From a virus: a stretch of DNA of 64,000 nt. A program made the position numbers and the translations under genes. The stretch lies in the IMG/VR virus record IMGVR_UViG_3300027708_000023; one strand, given 5' to 3'. Shown piece after piece: positions 30,276-39,880 of this stretch (positions are counted from its first letter, which is position 1; every line of letters starts with the position of its first letter). The notes beneath the pieces were generated by a model that ran no database searches, had not been told where the DNA came from, and saw only the letters and a program-made list of their open reading frames with translations.

Positions 30276-30718
30276 AAAAACTATTGGTAATATTAGTAGT
30301 CTTATGCTCAATAGATGTTTATGCTCAATCACCGATAGCATACAATCTTCATGCCATTACAACAACTTCAGCTTTAGCTAATTCTTCGCCTCCTGGCGAA
30401 TGGTCAAGAGTTGTGTCTGATGGTGCATTTTTTGCTTTTGATAGAGTAGCTCAAACCTATGGCGACCCAAATAGAGCTTTGCCTCCTGAATACTATCAAA
30501 TTGACGCAGAAGCAAGATCAAGACTATACAATAGTTATTCGCCATCCGGTTCTGAAAATGCTCCTCCAAGAAATAATCCTACAGCTAATTTCTTCGATAC
30601 TCGCAGAATGAACGGATATAATAGAGATATGGAAGAATGGAGAAAATCAGAAAAGGCTAAACTTAAAAGATATGGGGCCTACGACAGAGAAGCTATTCGC
30701 TATCTTTATAGTCCTTGA
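30272..30718 (+). CDS. Secreted hypothetical protein
   Basis: Signal peptide MKKLLVILVVLCSIDVYA. Confidence 0.65.
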   Translation: MKKLLVILVVLCSIDVYAQSPIAYNLHAITTTSALANSSPPGEWSRVVSDGAFFAFDRVAQTYGDPNRALPPEYYQIDAEARSRLYNSYSPSGSENAPPRNNPTANFFDTRRMNGYNRDMEEWRKSEKAKLKRYGAYDREAIRYLYSP

Positions 30719-31466
30719 TGCTTTTTTGAATCCATTTTGTATATAGACTAACTCTAGTGTGACAACTCTCGTCACCATAAGTAGAGTCAGACTTTCCATC
30801 ATAACCAATCACCGAAGAATTAATACCAGCTAATTTTCCATCAATAAAAAGTCCTCCACCACTATCTCCACTACATATTATATATTCTAGCTCAGTTATC
30901 TTCTCATGTTTTCTTGAAGGTGAGCATATTAAAACTTTTCTTTCTATCTTGTCCACAAAATTAGACCCTCCTCTTCTCTGACCATCGTTAAATTTTGTTC
31001 CAGTATTAAATGTTCCAGTAAATCCCCAGCCAGCTATTGAACAAATCCTCCCTATCTCGTCGTTCTTTTCATATATTGGGGGATAAAAATCAAGATTGAT
31101 TGGTTTTTCTAAATGACCCAGAGCAATGTCGTTGTGGCCAAATATTTCAGTTTTGTATTCTGAATGAGGGATCATTTTATCTATGTTATATTTCTCTTCG
31201 CCAACACTCACTGTCCAACTATGACAATTTTCAACAACATGAGCAGCAGTGATTATCCAATCTGGAGCTATTACAACAGCAGATCCACAGGACATACCCT
31301 TGCCGTCAAAGCAACACAACTTTACAACACTATGGAATTTTTTACCATATTCAACATATTTTGTATCACTAGTATTCGGGTCAATAGTTCCAGAGATCGC
31401 ATTACTAGATAAAACTAATAATAGCATCAGCACAGATACTAAATTTTTAATCATAAATTCCTCCAT
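30693..31466 (-). CDS. Trypsin-like (S1) serine protease with signal peptide
   Basis: ITAAHV, DIAL, GDSGGG catalytic triad motifs. Confidence 0.9.
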   Translation of the reverse strand: MEEFMIKNLVSVLMLLLVLSSNAISGTIDPNTSDTKYVEYGKKFHSVVKLCCFDGKGMSCGSAVVIAPDWIITAAHVVENCHSWTVSVGEEKYNIDKMIPHSEYKTEIFGHNDIALGHLEKPINLDFYPPIYEKNDEIGRICSIAGWGFTGTFNTGTKFNDGQRRGGSNFVDKIERKVLICSPSRKHEKITELEYIICSGDSGGGLFIDGKLAGINSSVIGYDGKSDSTYGDESCHTRVSLYTKWIQKSIKDYKDSE

Positions 31467-32395
31467 CCGTTGAACTTAGTTGGATCTATCAGTCCATTAC
31501 CACTATATGTTTTATCAATATGATTAGGATTGAGTAAATTAATTGTGTATTTTTTCATTACATTAATGTAGTCATCTGCTGTTTTAAGAGTTAAATTTAA
31601 ATTATTCTTTTTCTTATAGGATAGAAGAAGAGATGCGCAGCCAACCATAAATGGATTAGCCATACTAGTACCACTCATTAAAGCATATCTATTATGAGGA
31701 ACTGTACTTAAAATATTTTGTCCGGGAGCTAAAAAATCTAACTCTATTCCTTTACAAGTAAAATAAGCTCTCATTAGACGCTCATCGACTGCTCCAGTAC
31801 TAACTGTTTGTTCGTATTTTGCAGGATAATATATGTCTGACTGTTCTCCTCCATTACCAGCAGCACAAAAAGATACGGTTCCTTTAGATAAAGCATAGTC
31901 TATTGCTCTTTCTAAATCTTCGGATTTGTATGGGGATCCTAGAGACATGCATATAAGGTCAGCACCATGATCTGCGGCCCACACGATAGCCTGTGAGACA
32001 GTATTATTATTCCCACGACCATCGGCACCAAAAACTTTAACGGGCATGATTTTGGTATTTGGAGCTACTCCCACAACACCCATACTATTATTTTTAGCGC
32101 ATATTGTTCCGGCCACATGAGTGCCATGACTATTGTCATCATATGGGTCTTTTCCTGACTCAACAAAGTTCTTTCCTTGAACAAAATTAGATTTAAGATC
32201 TTCATGATCAAGATCACATCCGCTGTCTATTACTGCAACAGTAACACCAGCACCATCAGAAACTTCCCATGTTTCGTCTACTTTAAACTTAGACAAAGAC
32301 CAAGGTATGCTCTGACCTGACTCAAAACTTCCATATACTTCTTCTTTAATATATGGGAATAGGCCACAATCTTTTTTAAGTCTTTTTCTAGCCAT
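31451..32395 (-). CDS. Subtilisin-like (S8) serine protease
   Basis: VIDSG, HGTHVAG, AAGN, SGTSMA. Confidence 0.95.
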   Translation of the reverse strand: MARKRLKKDCGLFPYIKEEVYGSFESGQSIPWSLSKFKVDETWEVSDGAGVTVAVIDSGCDLDHEDLKSNFVQGKNFVESGKDPYDDNSHGTHVAGTICAKNNSMGVVGVAPNTKIMPVKVFGADGRGNNNTVSQAIVWAADHGADLICMSLGSPYKSEDLERAIDYALSKGTVSFCAAGNGGEQSDIYYPAKYEQTVSTGAVDERLMRAYFTCKGIELDFLAPGQNILSTVPHNRYALMSGTSMANPFMVGCASLLLSYKKKNNLNLTLKTADDYINVMKKYTINLLNPNHIDKTYSGNGLIDPTKFNGWRNL

Positions 32396-32430: not shown

Positions 32431-32832
32431 TTAATCACATTCTATTCTTACTTGAAAAGATCCACCATTATCCCCCTTGCAATAGTCATTAGTAAACATA
32501 GAAAGCTCACCGACCTCTCCTGGAATTCCCAAATATGAAGATCCCACTAAAAATACTGTTCCATTATCTCCAACCCTTCCCAGTATGGCTTCATGCAAGA
32601 AATTTAGATCAGAACAATAAGGATGATAGATACCATCTGGGCCACTAGTATAAGATGACCCCATCCAATAGACAGTTCCACTAGCAGTAATTTTAAGTTT
32701 TTGATTTGGTTCCACTATCCATCCTGTTGATTGCCACCCTCCGCGAGAATCAACGCTCGTATTAATCGGGTCTGGGCAGCATTTTAAGCAAAAATTTCCT
32801 ATTTTTTCTGGAGCGAATGGAAAATTTGACAT
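32431..32832 (-). CDS. FPFAP-leader protein with LecA/PA-IL-like beta-sandwich
   Basis: MSNFPFAPEKIGNFCLKCC then WQSTG...ITASG...GPDG...LGRVG...NDYCKGDNGGSFQV. Confidence 0.65.
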   Translation of the reverse strand: MSNFPFAPEKIGNFCLKCCPDPINTSVDSRGGWQSTGWIVEPNQKLKITASGTVYWMGSSYTSGPDGIYHPYCSDLNFLHEAILGRVGDNGTVFLVGSSYLGIPGEVGELSMFTNDYCKGDNGGSFQVRIECD

Positions 32833-32849
32833 TTTATTTTTTTTCCATA

Positions 32850-33323
32850 TTAGGCAAAAGAACAAGCATCAATAAGAATTGGAGATTCACCAACAGTCCT
32901 AGATACAAGATAAGCTATTCGACCTTCATCATCTTTTTTTATTGCTACCAAGTTTGCTATCCCAGTATGGCATTGACCAGGACCAAAACCATTATCTTCA
33001 TCTGGAGCAGCTCCGCATTCTAGTTTAGCATAAACTCTACAACAATTATCATCATCAAGATCTTTTGTCATTTCTTCAATTTGTTTTGCAGTAATTTTGA
33101 GTTTAACATATCTTTCTTGACAATCATCATCATTATTTAGATCTACTGTTCCCAATACAGATTTTTTAGATGGATCTATATAAACATAAGCGATAAAAAC
33201 AGCAGCATGACAACAGTGCCCTGTTGATGGTCCAGCGCTATATGTTAATTCTACATTTTCTATACCACAGCATTTTCTGCAAAAATTACCCTTTTTTATT
33301 GGAGCAAATGGGAAAGTTGACAT
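32850..33323 (-). CDS. FPFAP-leader Cys-rich protein
   Basis: MSTFPFAPIKKGNFCRKCC then an unrelated Cys-rich domain; GAGGA RBS. Confidence 0.7.
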   Translation of the reverse strand: MSTFPFAPIKKGNFCRKCCGIENVELTYSAGPSTGHCCHAAVFIAYVYIDPSKKSVLGTVDLNNDDDCQERYVKLKITAKQIEEMTKDLDDDNCCRVYAKLECGAAPDEDNGFGPGQCHTGIANLVAIKKDDEGRIAYLVSRTVGESPILIDACSFA

Positions 33324-33324
33324 A

Positions 33325-33645
33325 TTATCCTCTTAATTTTGGTTTATTGTTAACTTTATTTAAGTATGAATTAGAGTCTATTAAAACATCAATATTCCAA
33401 CTTTTAAAATTCATTAAATGACCAAATACTATATGACAAGGATCAGCACAAAGAGTAACCAAATTTGATGGGTCCAATTCTAATTCTGGAAACAAATGAA
33501 CCGGTTTTACATGATGAACTTCAAGTTTTTTGTCTCGTCCACAAGCAGCGCAAGTTCCATGATTTTTTAAGTGTTCTTTTCTTACATTACTCCATTTTGG
33601 CGACCTTATTGCATATCTGAGTTTCTTCAGAAAATCAAACATCAT
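33325..33645 (-). CDS. HNH endonuclease
   Basis: CAACG..LEVHHVKP...NLVTLC..CH. Confidence 0.85.
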   Translation of the reverse strand: MMFDFLKKLRYAIRSPKWSNVRKEHLKNHGTCAACGRDKKLEVHHVKPVHLFPELELDPSNLVTLCADPCHIVFGHLMNFKSWNIDVLIDSNSYLNKVNNKPKLRG

Positions 33646-34643
33646 AACACCTTAGCTGCAATTAAGCATCCTTTAGCTACTGCATGTAAGGGGTCCACGG
33701 CATGTCTGACCTCTTTGATTTTTAGTGGAAAATTATTTTCTTGAAGTTTAGAAGAAAACAACTCTACATAGCCTTTGGCCTGTGATGTTCCTCCAGCAAC
33801 AACAATACTTAATGGGTCTTTGAATTTTGGCAATAATTTATGATCAGTTAAAGCTGCGCTCAGCTGTTTGGTTGTATAATCTATTAATCTCTCATAATAA
33901 GCGGATACGGCTCCTAGTATTTGACTATCATTAGGTTGACCAACAACAAATCCACCACCTTCTTTTTCTGCCTGAACAACGCTGTCTGGCTCCCCCGTAG
34001 CTACTGCACTCATTCTATCAACCCAGTCTCCGCTCTTGGTTGTACTAAAAACTACTGTTGGTTCACCATTAAGCATAACGCAAACATTAGTCATTCCAGC
34101 ACCACAACTAACAGCAATTCCAGTATAATCATTATTTTCTAATTCAGCATAGCATAAAGCTTCAGCTTCATTAATTGATCTGGCAGCATATCCACATTCA
34201 CTCAAAATAGTCTTGACTACATCTTCATGATAGCCAACATCAAAGTCCTCATCTTCTTGATCTACCGGTTGAGCAGGAACGCAGAACACTAGCTTCTCAT
34301 TAGGCTCTGAGGCTTGTCCCACGACCTCTTTTAAAATAAAGGCCAGCACCCGCTTGGCATCCTTTTCTTTAGCTGAGACCACGCCTTTGTACATGGGGCG
34401 TTTTGCTGTATCATTTCTTTCAATAGCTTTTTCAATAGCGTCTTTACCTAAGAGAATGAATGATCCATCATGATCTTTAATAAAAACCTTACCAGCGAGA
34501 CCCTTTTCTATCATTTTAGTAGCAACGGGAGTTGTTGGTTTTATCACATAAAACGCATCTCTAAAATCTTTGTAGACAACACCATCATTAGAATCTTTGG
34601 ATAAAACAATATAACTTGTACCAACATCAAGACCACAACTCAT
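33642..34643 (-). CDS. Actin-fold ATPase (volactin/MreB-like)
   Basis: GLDVGT (phosphate 1), INEAEA (connect 1), SCGAGMTN (phosphate 2), VVAGGTS (adenosine), AVAKG (connect 2). Confidence 0.85.
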   Translation of the reverse strand: MSCGLDVGTSYIVLSKDSNDGVVYKDFRDAFYVIKPTTPVATKMIEKGLAGKVFIKDHDGSFILLGKDAIEKAIERNDTAKRPMYKGVVSAKEKDAKRVLAFILKEVVGQASEPNEKLVFCVPAQPVDQEDEDFDVGYHEDVVKTILSECGYAARSINEAEALCYAELENNDYTGIAVSCGAGMTNVCVMLNGEPTVVFSTTKSGDWVDRMSAVATGEPDSVVQAEKEGGGFVVGQPNDSQILGAVSAYYERLIDYTTKQLSAALTDHKLLPKFKDPLSIVVAGGTSQAKGYVELFSSKLQENNFPLKIKEVRHAVDPLHAVAKGCLIAAKVL

Positions 34644-34646
34644 ATG

Positions 34647-34979
34647 TTACCTCTTTAAATTCTTAAGCTTGTTAATGGAGTCCGTTATGTTTTCAGTAGA
34701 CTGTTTGATTTCACCCAAATTTTCATATTTCTTTTCCATACCGTCCGTCTTAATTTCAGTAACAAATTTAGTATCATTTATTACTACTTTGGTCTTTTTC
34801 TCTTCTTTTGGATTGTCAAAAAAGCTATTTGGTCTATTTATGGTATTATTATATACACCGTTACCAGACCGTTTGCCCACAAAATAGCCTATTAAAAAAA
34901 AACACACCCCTATTGCTAGGAGTGTGATTAAGAAGAAAATAACTGTTGGTATATTAAATGTTAAAGATATGTCATTCAT
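34647..34979 (-). CDS. Single-pass membrane protein adjacent to the actin-like ATPase
   Basis: TM VIFFLITLLAIGVCFFLIGYFV; 3-bp gap to the ATPase gene. Confidence 0.7.
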   Translation of the reverse strand: MNDISLTFNIPTVIFFLITLLAIGVCFFLIGYFVGKRSGNGVYNNTINRPNSFFDNPKEEKKTKVVINDTKFVTEIKTDGMEKKYENLGEIKQSTENITDSINKLKNLKR

Positions 34980-35904
34980 TTTTCTTATATGAGCCTATTA
35001 CTCTTCCCTTTTGGGTTCGTACAACAAACCCTTTCCGTACTAGAAAAGGCTCTATGCTGTTTTCGATTGTGTCTATAGCGATTCCTGTCATAGATGAGAT
35101 ACTTTTAAGTCCAAGAGCAGCACCCTTTGACTTTAATAGCACATCCAAATACAATCTATCATACACATCCAACCCATTTTTATCAATGCCCTGACCTTCA
35201 AAAATCTCATCAATAGTCATATTCTTATCCTTATAGAATGCCACGCAGTTTTTATACCACTGTAGCCTACCATTCAAAATACGAGGAGTTCCCTTGCTTC
35301 TTCTAGCTATCTCAATTAGTTCAGAAGGTTGAATCATTAGTCCAAGCTTTTGTGCGTTTGACTCTGCTAGTTTAGCTAACTCAAATTCATTGTAAAAGCA
35401 CAAATGTTCCTTAATTTGAAATCTATCATAAAATGGCTGACTAAGACTACCACCACTAGTTGTAGCTCCAACAATAGTAAACATTGGAAGTTCAATATTT
35501 TCTGGCTTATCTTTATCTTCTTCATCCTTAACGGTAATGCTTAGAACAAAATCTTCCATAACGGGATAAAGAAATTCTTCTACAATTTTGGGCAACCTAT
35601 GAATTTCATCAATAAATAGAACTGATCTAGGAGCAATGCCCATGATATATGGTAGAATATTTTTAATGCTACGAATACCAGCGCCATTGACGGTATACAT
35701 ATTAACATCCATCTCATTTGCTATGGCACTTGCTATGGTGGTCTTACCAAGTCCCGGCGGGCCGTCTATTAAAACATGAGGCATAACTCCCTGAGAGTCT
35801 TTGCACCCAGCCACCATAATTTGCAGTCTTGTTAGAACATCCTGCTGACCAATAATATCACTGAACTTCGACGGACGAATCACATTTGCCATTTTTTTCT
35901 CCAA
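34972..35904 (-). CDS. ruvB: Holliday junction branch migration ATPase RuvB
   Basis: GPPGLGKTT, LFIDEIH, EEFLYPVMED, GATT, DRF, GTPR, EPFL. Confidence 0.92.
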   Translation of the reverse strand: MEKKMANVIRPSKFSDIIGQQDVLTRLQIMVAGCKDSQGVMPHVLIDGPPGLGKTTIASAIANEMDVNMYTVNGAGIRSIKNILPYIMGIAPRSVLFIDEIHRLPKIVEEFLYPVMEDFVLSITVKDEEDKDKPENIELPMFTIVGATTSGGSLSQPFYDRFQIKEHLCFYNEFELAKLAESNAQKLGLMIQPSELIEIARRSKGTPRILNGRLQWYKNCVAFYKDKNMTIDEIFEGQGIDKNGLDVYDRLYLDVLLKSKGAALGLKSISSMTGIAIDTIENSIEPFLVRKGFVVRTQKGRVIGSYKKNE

Positions 35905-39842: not shown

Positions 39843-39880
39843 ATTTTACACTAATCGGCAAGCTTGTCAAGGGGTCTTGA
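39843..39880 (-). promoter_or_regulatory. Dual promoter: TTGACA-N16-TAAAAT plus TCAA-N17-GCCGAT
   Basis: Read directly upstream of rIIB. Confidence 0.7.

Follow-up and report, generated by a model that had tools for sequence, protein, structure and literature searches.

An uncultured freshwater jumbo phage with a genome of ~230 kb encodes an actin of the volactin family next to a small membrane protein, and probably builds membrane-tethered actin filaments. The two genes lie on the minus strand of the window, the 64,000-nucleotide stretch of viral DNA analysed here (IMG/VR record IMGVR_UViG_3300027708_000023). Membrane-tethered filaments are probable because the conserved tail of the upstream protein also ends the bacterial partner genes of this actin. 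Cytoskeletons built by phages are known almost exclusively as PhuZ/TubZ tubulins, with one prophage actin, AlpC, beside them. A literature search returned no paper on a phage volactin-type actin combined with a membrane adaptor.

The pair had been proposed in an initial annotation made from the DNA sequence. Both reading frames were recovered as described there (333 and 110 aa), every motif it had quoted is present in the actin translation, and genome and database comparisons bear out that the actin is phage-encoded. Both genes are real, because the actin is under purifying selection (dN/dS 0.056 against 50 relatives) and because the two occur together in every one of the 80 related viral loci, so the proposed pairing is a conserved one.

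Table 1. Features of the actin locus, with positions in the window and the basis of each assignment.
Feature	Position	Strand	Basis
HNH homing endonuclease, overlapping the actin stop	33325..33645	(-)	Pfam HNH and PHROG HNH families
Volactin-family actin-fold ATPase, 333 aa	33642..34643	(-)	Pfam, AF2, structural matches, tree, dN/dS
Predicted single-pass membrane adaptor, 110 aa, no known family	34647..34979	(-)	AF2, conserved position
Conserved cytoplasmic tail of the adaptor, aa 63-110 (about 46 residues), proposed actin-binding module	34650..34793	(-)	Conservation, tail homology
Shine-Dalgarno AAGAGG for actin, in the last adaptor codons (K-R), 6 nt before ATG	34650..34655	(-)	Read from sequence
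Terminal helix of the adaptor tail, aa 98-109	34653..34688	(-)	AF2
Transmembrane helix of the adaptor, aa 10-37, N-out/C-in	34869..34952	(-)	pLDDT 92-96, positive-inside rule
RuvB-like AAA+ ATPase, conserved neighbour	34972..35904	(-)	RuvB_N 159.7 bits, RuvB_C 62.5 bits (Pfam)
Best sigma70-like promoter upstream of the gene string down to actin	39843..39870	(-)	TTGACA-16-TAAAAT, 11/12, consensus match only

Gene organisation

As annotated, the membrane protein gene ends just upstream of the actin gene, its stop codon (TAA, 34649–34647) being separated from the actin ATG (34643–34641) by 3 nt (CAT). The position of the actin Shine-Dalgarno sequence inside the final codons of the adaptor implies translational coupling. 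At its other end, the adaptor start is overlapped by 8 nt by the end of the RuvB-like gene. The order ruvB-like, membrane protein, actin is kept in all 80 related loci, with mean identities of 85.6% for the actin, 73.3% for RuvB and 50.4% for the membrane protein, which makes the actin the most constrained of the three. The RuvB neighbourhood is limited to this phage clade. No convincing terminator was found between the sigma70-like promoter and the actin gene; a terminator-like hairpin at 34926–34903 was dismissed, as it lies within the coding region of the membrane protein.

The phage actin belongs to the volactin family

The second gene encodes a volactin-family ATPase with an actin fold, and not an MreB, ParM, Hsp70, EutJ or FtsA. 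The Pfam family Volactin (PF25216) matched the reading frame with 219.2 bits (E 1.2e-64; cut-off 35), covering residues 1–330 and profile positions 1–321 of 321. MreB_Mbl (PF06723) reached 26.8 bits against a cut-off of 27 in a partial match to residues 58–209, and neither Salactin (PF25229) nor ParM matched at E≤0.01 in Pfam. The closer likeness to volactin than to MreB or ParM had already been proposed from the motifs RPMYKG, GQASEPNEKLVFCVPAQPVD, GYHEDV, INEAEALCYAEL, TGIAVSCGAGMTNVC and GDWVD. The PHROGs contain no family for the protein.

The AF2 model of the actin has a pLDDT of 96.9, and its 50 best structural matches are all filament-forming actins with four subdomains. The Z scores were 28.8 for MamK, 28.2 for BeeR, about 27 for MreB and about 26 for F-actin; for MamK, BeeR and MreB (5ljv, 8r2n, 1jce/4cze), values of 27–29 went with an rmsd of about 3 Å over 280–297 residues. 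These three proteins share the four-subdomain polymerising bacterial actin fold with the phage protein but are only 18–24% identical to it, and the phage locus is without the MreCD, RodZ or magnetosome context of MreB and MamK. EutJ, PilM, FtsA and DnaK scored far lower (TM 0.52–0.60 versus 0.69–0.75), and the grouping with FtsA, EutJ or Hsp70-like proteins that had been weighed earlier was not seen. A sequence search of the PDB returned BeeR alone (E 0.015). BFVD held no close viral structure, the best being Hsp70s and gp506 of Bacillus phage G (TM about 0.5–0.6).

The nucleotide-binding motifs phosphate 1, phosphate 2 and adenosine are present, apart from a Ser in phosphate 2, and residues D6, G8, T9, G181, G183, G284, G285 and T286 show little or no variation among 57 sequences. 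The Ser (S179) replaces the Asp of canonical actins throughout the family, so the kinetics of the ATPase may be unusual.

A deep phage-only branch of a widespread family

In an MreB-rooted IQ-TREE phylogeny, 61 family rows, including Haloferax and Halorubrum, formed one clade (SH-aLRT 100), separated from MreB by a long branch. In keeping with the volactin assignment, the phage actin falls inside this clade, where it occupies a deep phage-only subclade outside the archaeal one. It is about 33–40% identical to the wider family.

Relatives of the phage actin amount to 1,694 clusters at 90% identity (E≤1e-5) and occur in 452 IMG/VR stretches, and the family as a whole comprises 977 clusters at 50% identity. 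Cellular relatives in genome contigs were sought with a two-motif DNA pattern scan. In the phage GenBank set, the DNA search gave no match to the locus and the protein search gave two matches only, both huge phages of the Al-Shayeb type with 33–35% identity. Conservation of the phage actin is extreme, its occurrence among uncultured phages of aquatic habitats is very wide, and a haloarchaeon is the only organism in which its family has been studied so far. The family is also common in Planctomycetota, which connects the phage protein with a large group of volactin paralogues, as yet unstudied, in a phylum with many members that lack FtsZ.

The upstream gene encodes a putative membrane adaptor

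Neither Pfam nor the PHROGs contain a family for the upstream protein, and the ESM Atlas gave nothing usable, with scores below 0.9. In the AF2 model, the well-defined transmembrane helix is followed by a disordered stretch (residues 38–97) and the short terminal helix. Positively charged residues are concentrated behind the membrane helix: the mean number of K+R is 0.07 on the N-terminal flank and 1.22 on the C-terminal flank, with more on the latter in 25 of 27 orthologues, pointing to an N-out/C-in topology. The helix itself is kept in all orthologues of the phage clade though its sequence drifts, and the tail is the best conserved part of the protein.

The adaptor tail is shared with partners of other volactins

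Sequence comparison supports an extension of the membrane-protein pairing to cellular relatives and distant phages, on the basis of the C-terminal tail that they have in common. In Planctomycetota and other bacteria, the partner proteins encoded directly upstream of volactin-family genes end in a tail of the type LESN..V.VK...GIAANLAKLKKLKGG, and the phage membrane protein ends in a homologous tail. An hhalign comparison of phage with bacterial partner tails gave a probability of 84.3% and an E value of 7.2e-6 over 33 ungapped columns, the homology lying at the C-termini. When an HMM was built from the bacterial tails alone, its top-ranking matches out of 13,521 six-frame segments were C-termini of the phage membrane proteins, with a best E value of 2.8e-4; the window's own tail reached an E value of only 0.71, and the signal is carried by its orthologues. 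The same HMM also matched the partner of a phage with a 44%-identical actin (E 1.5e-4). An HMM from close phage tails only, which is too narrow, found one outside match, in Aerophobus (E 0.002).

Among viral actins less than 60% identical to ours, an HMM of the core motif matched 8 of 41 upstream open reading frames versus 10 of 1507 (Fisher 4e-9). About a quarter of the distant viral relatives have another small partner (MAQLIRP...WAIPDF...FGK) without the LKxLK helix. Natural fusions of tail and actin were absent from 150 representatives.

The phage tails resemble the haloarchaeal ones weakly (P 0.011 over 14 columns in hhalign), and the bacterial and haloarchaeal tails gave P 0.0016 over 21 columns. 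Archaeal volactin neighbours match PF23600 (DUF7139; 124, 49.6 and 30.4 bits), a family that the window's membrane protein, with one transmembrane helix and not four, does not match even at E≤1. The N-termini of the partners differ while the tail persists or, in archaea, may persist: transmembrane helices, amphipathic helices, wHTH-like modules and, in archaea, the four-helix DUF7139. Some of these partners are soluble, namely those with wHTH-like N-termini in candidate phyla and proteins of roughly 210 aa in huge phages. Judged from these sequences, variable N-termini with a constant tail are the pattern expected of an adaptor.

A proposed membrane-anchored filament

The reading we favour, and regard as moderately likely, is that the two genes make a cytomotive actin system, anchored in the membrane and employed while the phage replicates lytically, for which we infer polymerisation, contact between tail and actin, and the cargo and purpose of the filaments. 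The first gene would give a single-pass membrane protein with its N-terminus outside and a tail of roughly 75 residues reaching into the cytoplasm. In this cytoplasmic part, a disordered linker would lead to the conserved last 46 residues, which close with an amphipathic, basic helix (..ITDSINKLKNLKR). The second, translationally coupled gene would supply the volactin-family actin, which is predicted to bind ATP and polymerise. The conserved tail would then bind the actin, probably at a filament end, like the tail of ParR on ParM, and the inner membrane would thereby serve as a nucleation or tethering site for filaments. The filaments may extend across the cytoplasm like those of volactin in Haloferax, and would most likely place or hold replicating DNA or assembly sites, which is the job of PhuZ tubulin in other jumbo phages. 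A complete 230-kb relative (G001) contains no tubulin, as judged by the lack of a PF00091 match, which makes the replacement of a PhuZ-type spindle by this actin a fair idea.

A wider reading, to which we give somewhat less than an even chance, treats the tail as a universal docking peptide for volactins. Archaea, Planctomycetota, bacteria of candidate phyla and several unrelated clades of large phages would all encode an upstream adaptor composed of the tail peptide and an exchangeable N-terminal module (one transmembrane helix, the four-helix DUF7139, an amphipathic helix or a winged helix). Volactin systems would then be a third general adaptor-driven actin machine of prokaryotes, beside ParMRC and MreB-RodZ, and in abundant freshwater jumbo phages the membrane-anchored version would take over from the PhuZ tubulin spindle, as a spindle or scaffold made of actin. 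Should docking of the tail on the filament prove true, it would name the missing "volactin-binding factor" that explains tip-anchoring in Haloferax, offer a testable peptide–groove interaction, and suggest how large phages that form no nucleus organise the infected cell.

Alternative functions

The anchored filaments might instead act on the host, deforming or enlarging its cell or blocking its division without positioning any phage material. By analogy this has some appeal: volactin is a cell-shape factor in Haloferax volcanii, with a role in the rod-to-disk transition (PMC10869688), anchors of the CdpA type work at the division ring, the family is abundant in Planctomycetota, and the adaptor would bind membrane and not DNA. 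However, the genes around that of the actin belong to replication and recombination (primase-like, RuvB-like), with a promoter of early type upstream, AlpC, the one phage actin that has been studied, serves replication, and nothing in our data ties the pair to envelope or division proteins of the host. We therefore regard such a take-over as unlikely.

It is more doubtful still that the upstream protein regulates the actin as a nucleator, capper or sequestering factor, its transmembrane helix only localising or limiting it. A terminal peptide that folds on binding at the end of a disordered linker would suit a regulator as well as an anchor, and the soluble partners of some relatives carry the same tail. 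The retention of the membrane helix across the phage clade argues for an anchor, as do the archaeal partners, which are likewise integral membrane proteins, and the contact of volactin filaments with the membrane by their tips.

Segregation of a plasmid-like prophage in lysogens, in the manner of ParMRC, is very improbable. Pairs of an actin and an adaptor classically segregate plasmids, one Planctomycetota relative (P0142) has its actin fused to a ParB-type HTH, and some bacterial partners have wHTH-like N-termini; but the phage adaptor, a membrane protein, lacks a DNA-binding domain, the actin matches no ParM family, the genome carries rIIA and further markers of a lytic T4-like style, and G001 contains neither a tyrosine integrase nor ParB.

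A non-polymerising chaperone or assembly factor of the Hsp70, EutJ, FtsA or PilM kind, with a membrane protein beside it by chance, is just as hard to credit, for although a Ser stands in place of the phosphate-2 Asp, volactins of the H. volcanii type have the same residue and their founding member does polymerise in vivo, the structural comparison favours filament-forming actins throughout, and the pairing is conserved across domains.

Relation to known filament systems

The nearest studied system is volactin of H. volcanii (VolA, HVO_2015), whose filaments are dynamic in vivo and contact the membrane with their tips (PMC10869688). Haloarchaeal volactin is adjoined upstream by a CdpA-like membrane protein of the DUF7139 family, HVO_2016, and volactin was enriched, at borderline significance, in a CdpA pull-down (log2FC 2.5, p=0.06; PMC12126565). 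The two actins belong to the same full-length Pfam family and share the phosphate-2 Ser, and in both cases the membrane protein encoded upstream has a cytoplasmic linker that is disordered, together with a small region at its C-terminus. The phage actin differs in being phage-encoded, bacterial in style and on a deep branch of its own; its partner has a single transmembrane helix and no DUF7139, and the tail is clearly similar to those of bacterial partners (E 7e-6) but weakly to the haloarchaeal ones.

AlpC of the Corynebacterium glutamicum prophage CGP3 is expressed early, is co-transcribed with its adaptor AlpA and is needed for efficient replication of phage DNA (PMC4446434). As in our locus, a phage-encoded actin is paired with an adaptor gene; our adaptor, however, is a membrane protein where AlpA attaches to phage DNA, and CGP3 is a temperate prophage and not a lytic jumbo phage. 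The Volactin profile found no match in a C. glutamicum control genome, so AlpC apparently belongs to a different actin family, provided that this strain carries CGP3.

In ParMRC, too, actin and adaptor lie side by side. The short C-terminal peptide of ParR inserts into the end groove of its actin, and by analogy the phage adaptor may likewise combine a variable, cargo-binding N-terminus with a short C-terminal peptide. Its cargo domain would be a transmembrane helix and not a ribbon-helix-helix, the actin is no ParM, and the complete relative is without lysogeny genes. The PhuZ spindle is found in the nucleus-forming jumbo phages, the Chimalliviridae (PMC7950403, PMC8314001). Here again a jumbo phage would possess its own cytomotive filament for positioning replication or assembly, but one with an actin fold in place of tubulin and tethered by a dedicated membrane protein.

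Host and passenger genes

The initial annotation had linked the phage to a planctomycete host, a link that our data do not uphold: the tree places the phage clade away from those of the Planctomycetota, and the G+C content of the window is about 35%. The assignment of two close relatives to MAG bins labelled 'Chitinophagia bacterium' and 'bacterium' was judged too weak as a clue, and RuvB matches in the phage set were rejected as another, as they resemble bacterial RuvB from records of prophages or contaminants. The HNH endonuclease gene downstream of the actin is present in only 47 of the 80 related loci and at varying places; it is a mobile passenger outside the module.

Structure and phylogeny of the phage actin

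The initial annotation had proposed a phage actin gene paired with the gene of a membrane protein (TM protein), and a likeness of the actin to volactin in preference to MreB or ParM. All the motifs on which it relied were found in the actin translation and both ORFs lie where it had placed them; its coordinates and description of the gene pair are therefore correct. Read from the sequence, the TM-gene stop codon (TAA, 34649-34647) and the actin ATG (34643-34641) are separated by 3 nt. A Shine–Dalgarno sequence (AAGAGG) falls within the final two codons of the TM gene, with the actin ATG 6 nt further on.

Coordinates of the gene pair and neighbouring features
Feature	Position	Strand	Detail
Actin ORF	33642-34643	-	333 aa
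Upstream TM-protein ORF	34647-34979	-	110 aa
Phage RuvB-like AAA+ protein	34972-35904	-	RuvB_N, lid, RuvB_C
Best sigma70-like promoter of the region	39870-39843	-	consensus 11/12
Adjoining Cys-rich paralogues	32431-33323	-	144 and 157 aa
Subtilase and trypsin-like serine protease	30693-32395	-	

The preference for volactin was borne out in Pfam, where the actin matched the entire Volactin profile (PF25216; 219 bits, E = 1.2e-64). MreB_Mbl reached 26.8 bits, slightly below the cut-off and covering part of the protein, and neither Salactin nor ParM matched. The structure predicted by AlphaFold2 from a 57-sequence alignment (pLDDT 96.9, pTM 0.93) had the MamK filament, the BeeR filament and MreB as its top Foldseek matches (TM 0.69–0.75), with EutJ, PilM, FtsA and DnaK ranking far lower. 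VIA-align gave a Z score of 28.8 for MamK (r.m.s.d. 2.8 Å over 291 residues), 28.2 for BeeR, about 27 for MreB and about 26 for F-actin; all of the best 50 entries were polymerising actins. Nucleotide-binding residues are invariant or nearly so across the alignment, except in the phosphate-2 loop, where S-C-G-A-G replaces the canonical D-x-G-x-G. This serine (residue 179 of the window actin) is a family-wide trait, conserved in at least 90% of the 57 diverse members.

In an IQ-TREE phylogeny rooted on two MreBs, all 61 volactin-family sequences formed a single clade (SH-aLRT 100), which grouped the window actin with Haloferax, Halorubrum, Methanosarcinales, Planctomycetota, candidate-phyla bacteria and phages. 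The window actin sits on a branch of phage and metagenome sequences only (support 88, inner nodes 97–99), separate from the archaeal and Planctomycetota clades, as in a larger FastTree phylogeny. Pfam match and tree position thus identify it as a volactin-family member in the Pfam sense, yet not as one acquired recently from haloarchaea or Planctomycetota.

The TM protein and its conserved tail

The order ruvB-like gene, TM gene, actin was kept in 80/80 retrieved relatives, and the proposed pairing of actin with a membrane-protein gene is conserved to the same extent. An HNH gene follows the actin at variable positions in 47 of the 80, much as a homing endonuclease would. Mean identity was 85.6% for the actin, 73.3% for RuvB and 50.4% for the TM protein, and the actin is the most constrained of the three genes (dN/dS 0.056). 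The final 46 residues of the TM protein are conserved (xKIxIDDTKxVTDIKTDGLEKKYxxLGExKxSxENISxSINKLKNMKx), while the hydrophobic helix and linker drift. The AlphaFold2 model contains a TM helix (10–37), a disordered stretch (38–97) and a terminal helix (98–109). Because Lys and Arg are in excess on the C-terminal flank of the TM helix (1.22, against 0.07 on the N-terminal side; 25 of 27 orthologues agree), the tail is predicted to be cytoplasmic.

When one genome for each prokaryotic species was scanned with a two-motif DNA pattern, at least 120 loci were returned. Among the matches listed were about 45 Halobacteria, Methanosarcina and Methanolobus, Archaeoglobaceae and Thermoplasmata; about 55 Planctomycetota, often with a tandem pair of paralogues; and a few Omnitrophota, Patescibacteria, Saganbacteria, Nitrospirota and others. 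Among these listed loci, a related tail ends the gene directly upstream of the actin. It reads ..LESNMDNVxVKxKxGGGIAANLAKLKKLKGG in Planctomycetota, ..LELESNINKVG...L..V+KGG after a wHTH-like N-terminus in candidate-phyla bacteria, and ..LKTKLNSIRR in the TM protein of Methanolobus.

Profile–profile comparison aligned the phage tails (alignment A3) with the bacterial tails (A4) over 33 ungapped columns (probability 84%, E = 7.2e-6). An HMM trained solely on bacterial tails was searched over 13,521 six-frame segments from the window and phage loci, and every one of its top matches was a phage TM-protein C-terminus (best E = 2.8e-4). The window tail was its best match inside the window, though with E = 0.71. 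This HMM also matched the partner in L086, a phage with a 44%-identical actin (E = 1.5e-4). For viral actins less than 60% identical to the window actin, taken as an independent set, a bacteria-trained HMM of the 15-column core reached 6 bits or more in 8 of the 41 upstream ORFs versus 10 of 1,507 other ORF C-termini (Fisher 4e-9, Mann–Whitney 8e-7). By these comparisons, the tail is not private to the window's phage clade.

The type of partner tracks the actin clade: a single-TM protein with an LKxLK tail; a protein of about 210 aa ending in FIPxG...DDAAxALKxxRKK; or one of 76–85 aa (MAQLIRP...WAIPDF...FGK) without the basic helix. This third, soluble type (MAQLIRPSDVKIITKDGELKVSITLDLN...WAIPDF....KIxFGK) occurs with a distinct clade of actins from huge and large phages (loci L082, L226, L232, L233, L237, L239, L259, L261, L268, L270, L285, L298 and L303). 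It has the first half-motif (h-I-P-D-F) alone in common with the other tails, the LKxLK helix being missing.

In archaea, the gene upstream of the actin encodes a membrane protein in 36 of 47 loci, matching Pfam DUF7139. HVO_2016 of H. volcanii, a CdpA-like four-TM protein, adjoins volactin, and volactin enrichment in a CdpA pull-down was of borderline significance (log2FC 2.5, p = 0.06) (PMC12126565). The HVO_2016 tail carries the motifs VxxAVxGLKxLKGG and DDQTAKLKELREQ; the haloarchaeal likeness is weak (P = 0.0016 to the bacterial tail, 0.011 to the phage tail). Volactin filaments of H. volcanii are reported to be dynamic and to contact the membrane through their tips, and yet-unknown volactin-binding factors have been called for (PMC10869688).

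Genomic context and proposed role

The window is phage DNA by its gene content, which includes rIIA, DNA ligase, glycosyltransferases, a primase-like gene and HNH endonucleases. Close actin relatives are encoded by 452 IMG/VR stretches, whose contigs reach 244 kb; no cultured relative was found in the phage GenBank set. The relative G001 (230,097 bp, complete per CheckV) encodes no tubulin, tyrosine integrase or ParB, which points to a lytic phage that lacks both a PhuZ spindle and a plasmid-prophage stage. A planctomycete host, hinted at initially, is unsupported because of the G+C content of about 35% and the separation of the actin branch from the Planctomycetota clades.

The sigma70-like promoter is followed on the minus strand by genes for a 291-aa acidic protein, a primase-like protein, small ORFs, the RuvB-like protein, the TM protein and actin. 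No RuvA was recognised near the RuvB-like gene; L087, a distant phage with an actin gene, instead encodes a Holliday-junction resolvase (Endonuc_Holl), located a few genes upstream of the actin. The Cys-rich paralogues, between the HNH gene and the two proteases, both start with (M)S(N/T)FPFAPxKxGNFCxKCC and have no family match. Just downstream of the module are the subtilase (Peptidase_S8, 180 bits) and the trypsin-like protease (Trypsin, 76 bits; signal-like N-terminus), whose homologous ORF extends into the TM-protein frame in the related locus L068.

The simplest reading is an adaptor-plus-filament pair, in which a variable N-terminal module, a TM helix in the window phage, would anchor a conserved filament-binding peptide to a site or cargo. 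The outcome in this phage would be membrane-tethered actin filaments, produced along with the replication genes. We infer polymerisation, the tail–actin contact and the cargo. By analogy with PhuZ and AlpAC, the filaments would most likely position replication or assembly; the main alternative is that they remodel host shape or division. Full-text searches on volactin, phage actins and jumbo- or huge-phage actins turned up no account of volactins in phages or of the common tail, and the CdpA paper records just the HVO_2015/HVO_2016 adjacency (PMC12126565).

Unusual family members

In several family members of about 700 aa (P0122, P0131 and P0154), an intein that contains a LAGLIDADG endonuclease is inserted in the phosphate-2/adenosine region; the P0122 intein (Pfam Intein_splicing, LAGLIDADG_3, Hint_2) has STTK before it and (S)GDW after it. 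Among the single-chain variants, P0126 is a double actin, P0142 is fused to a ParB-HTH, and P0159 is fused to Wzz plus a P-loop ATPase of the BY-kinase type with TM segments. Tandem paralogues, one copy with a 140–170-aa N-terminal extension, are common in Planctomycetota and Omnitrophota (loci L101, L140, L153, L168, L169, L171, L178, L193 and L197). Loci in a MAG labelled Thermoplasmata (L183) and in Legionellales (L108) and Neisseriaceae (L144) MAGs are apparently binned phage contigs: the actin of L183 has that of huge phage LR745208 as its sister, and the partner in L108 belongs to the huge-phage type of roughly 210 aa.
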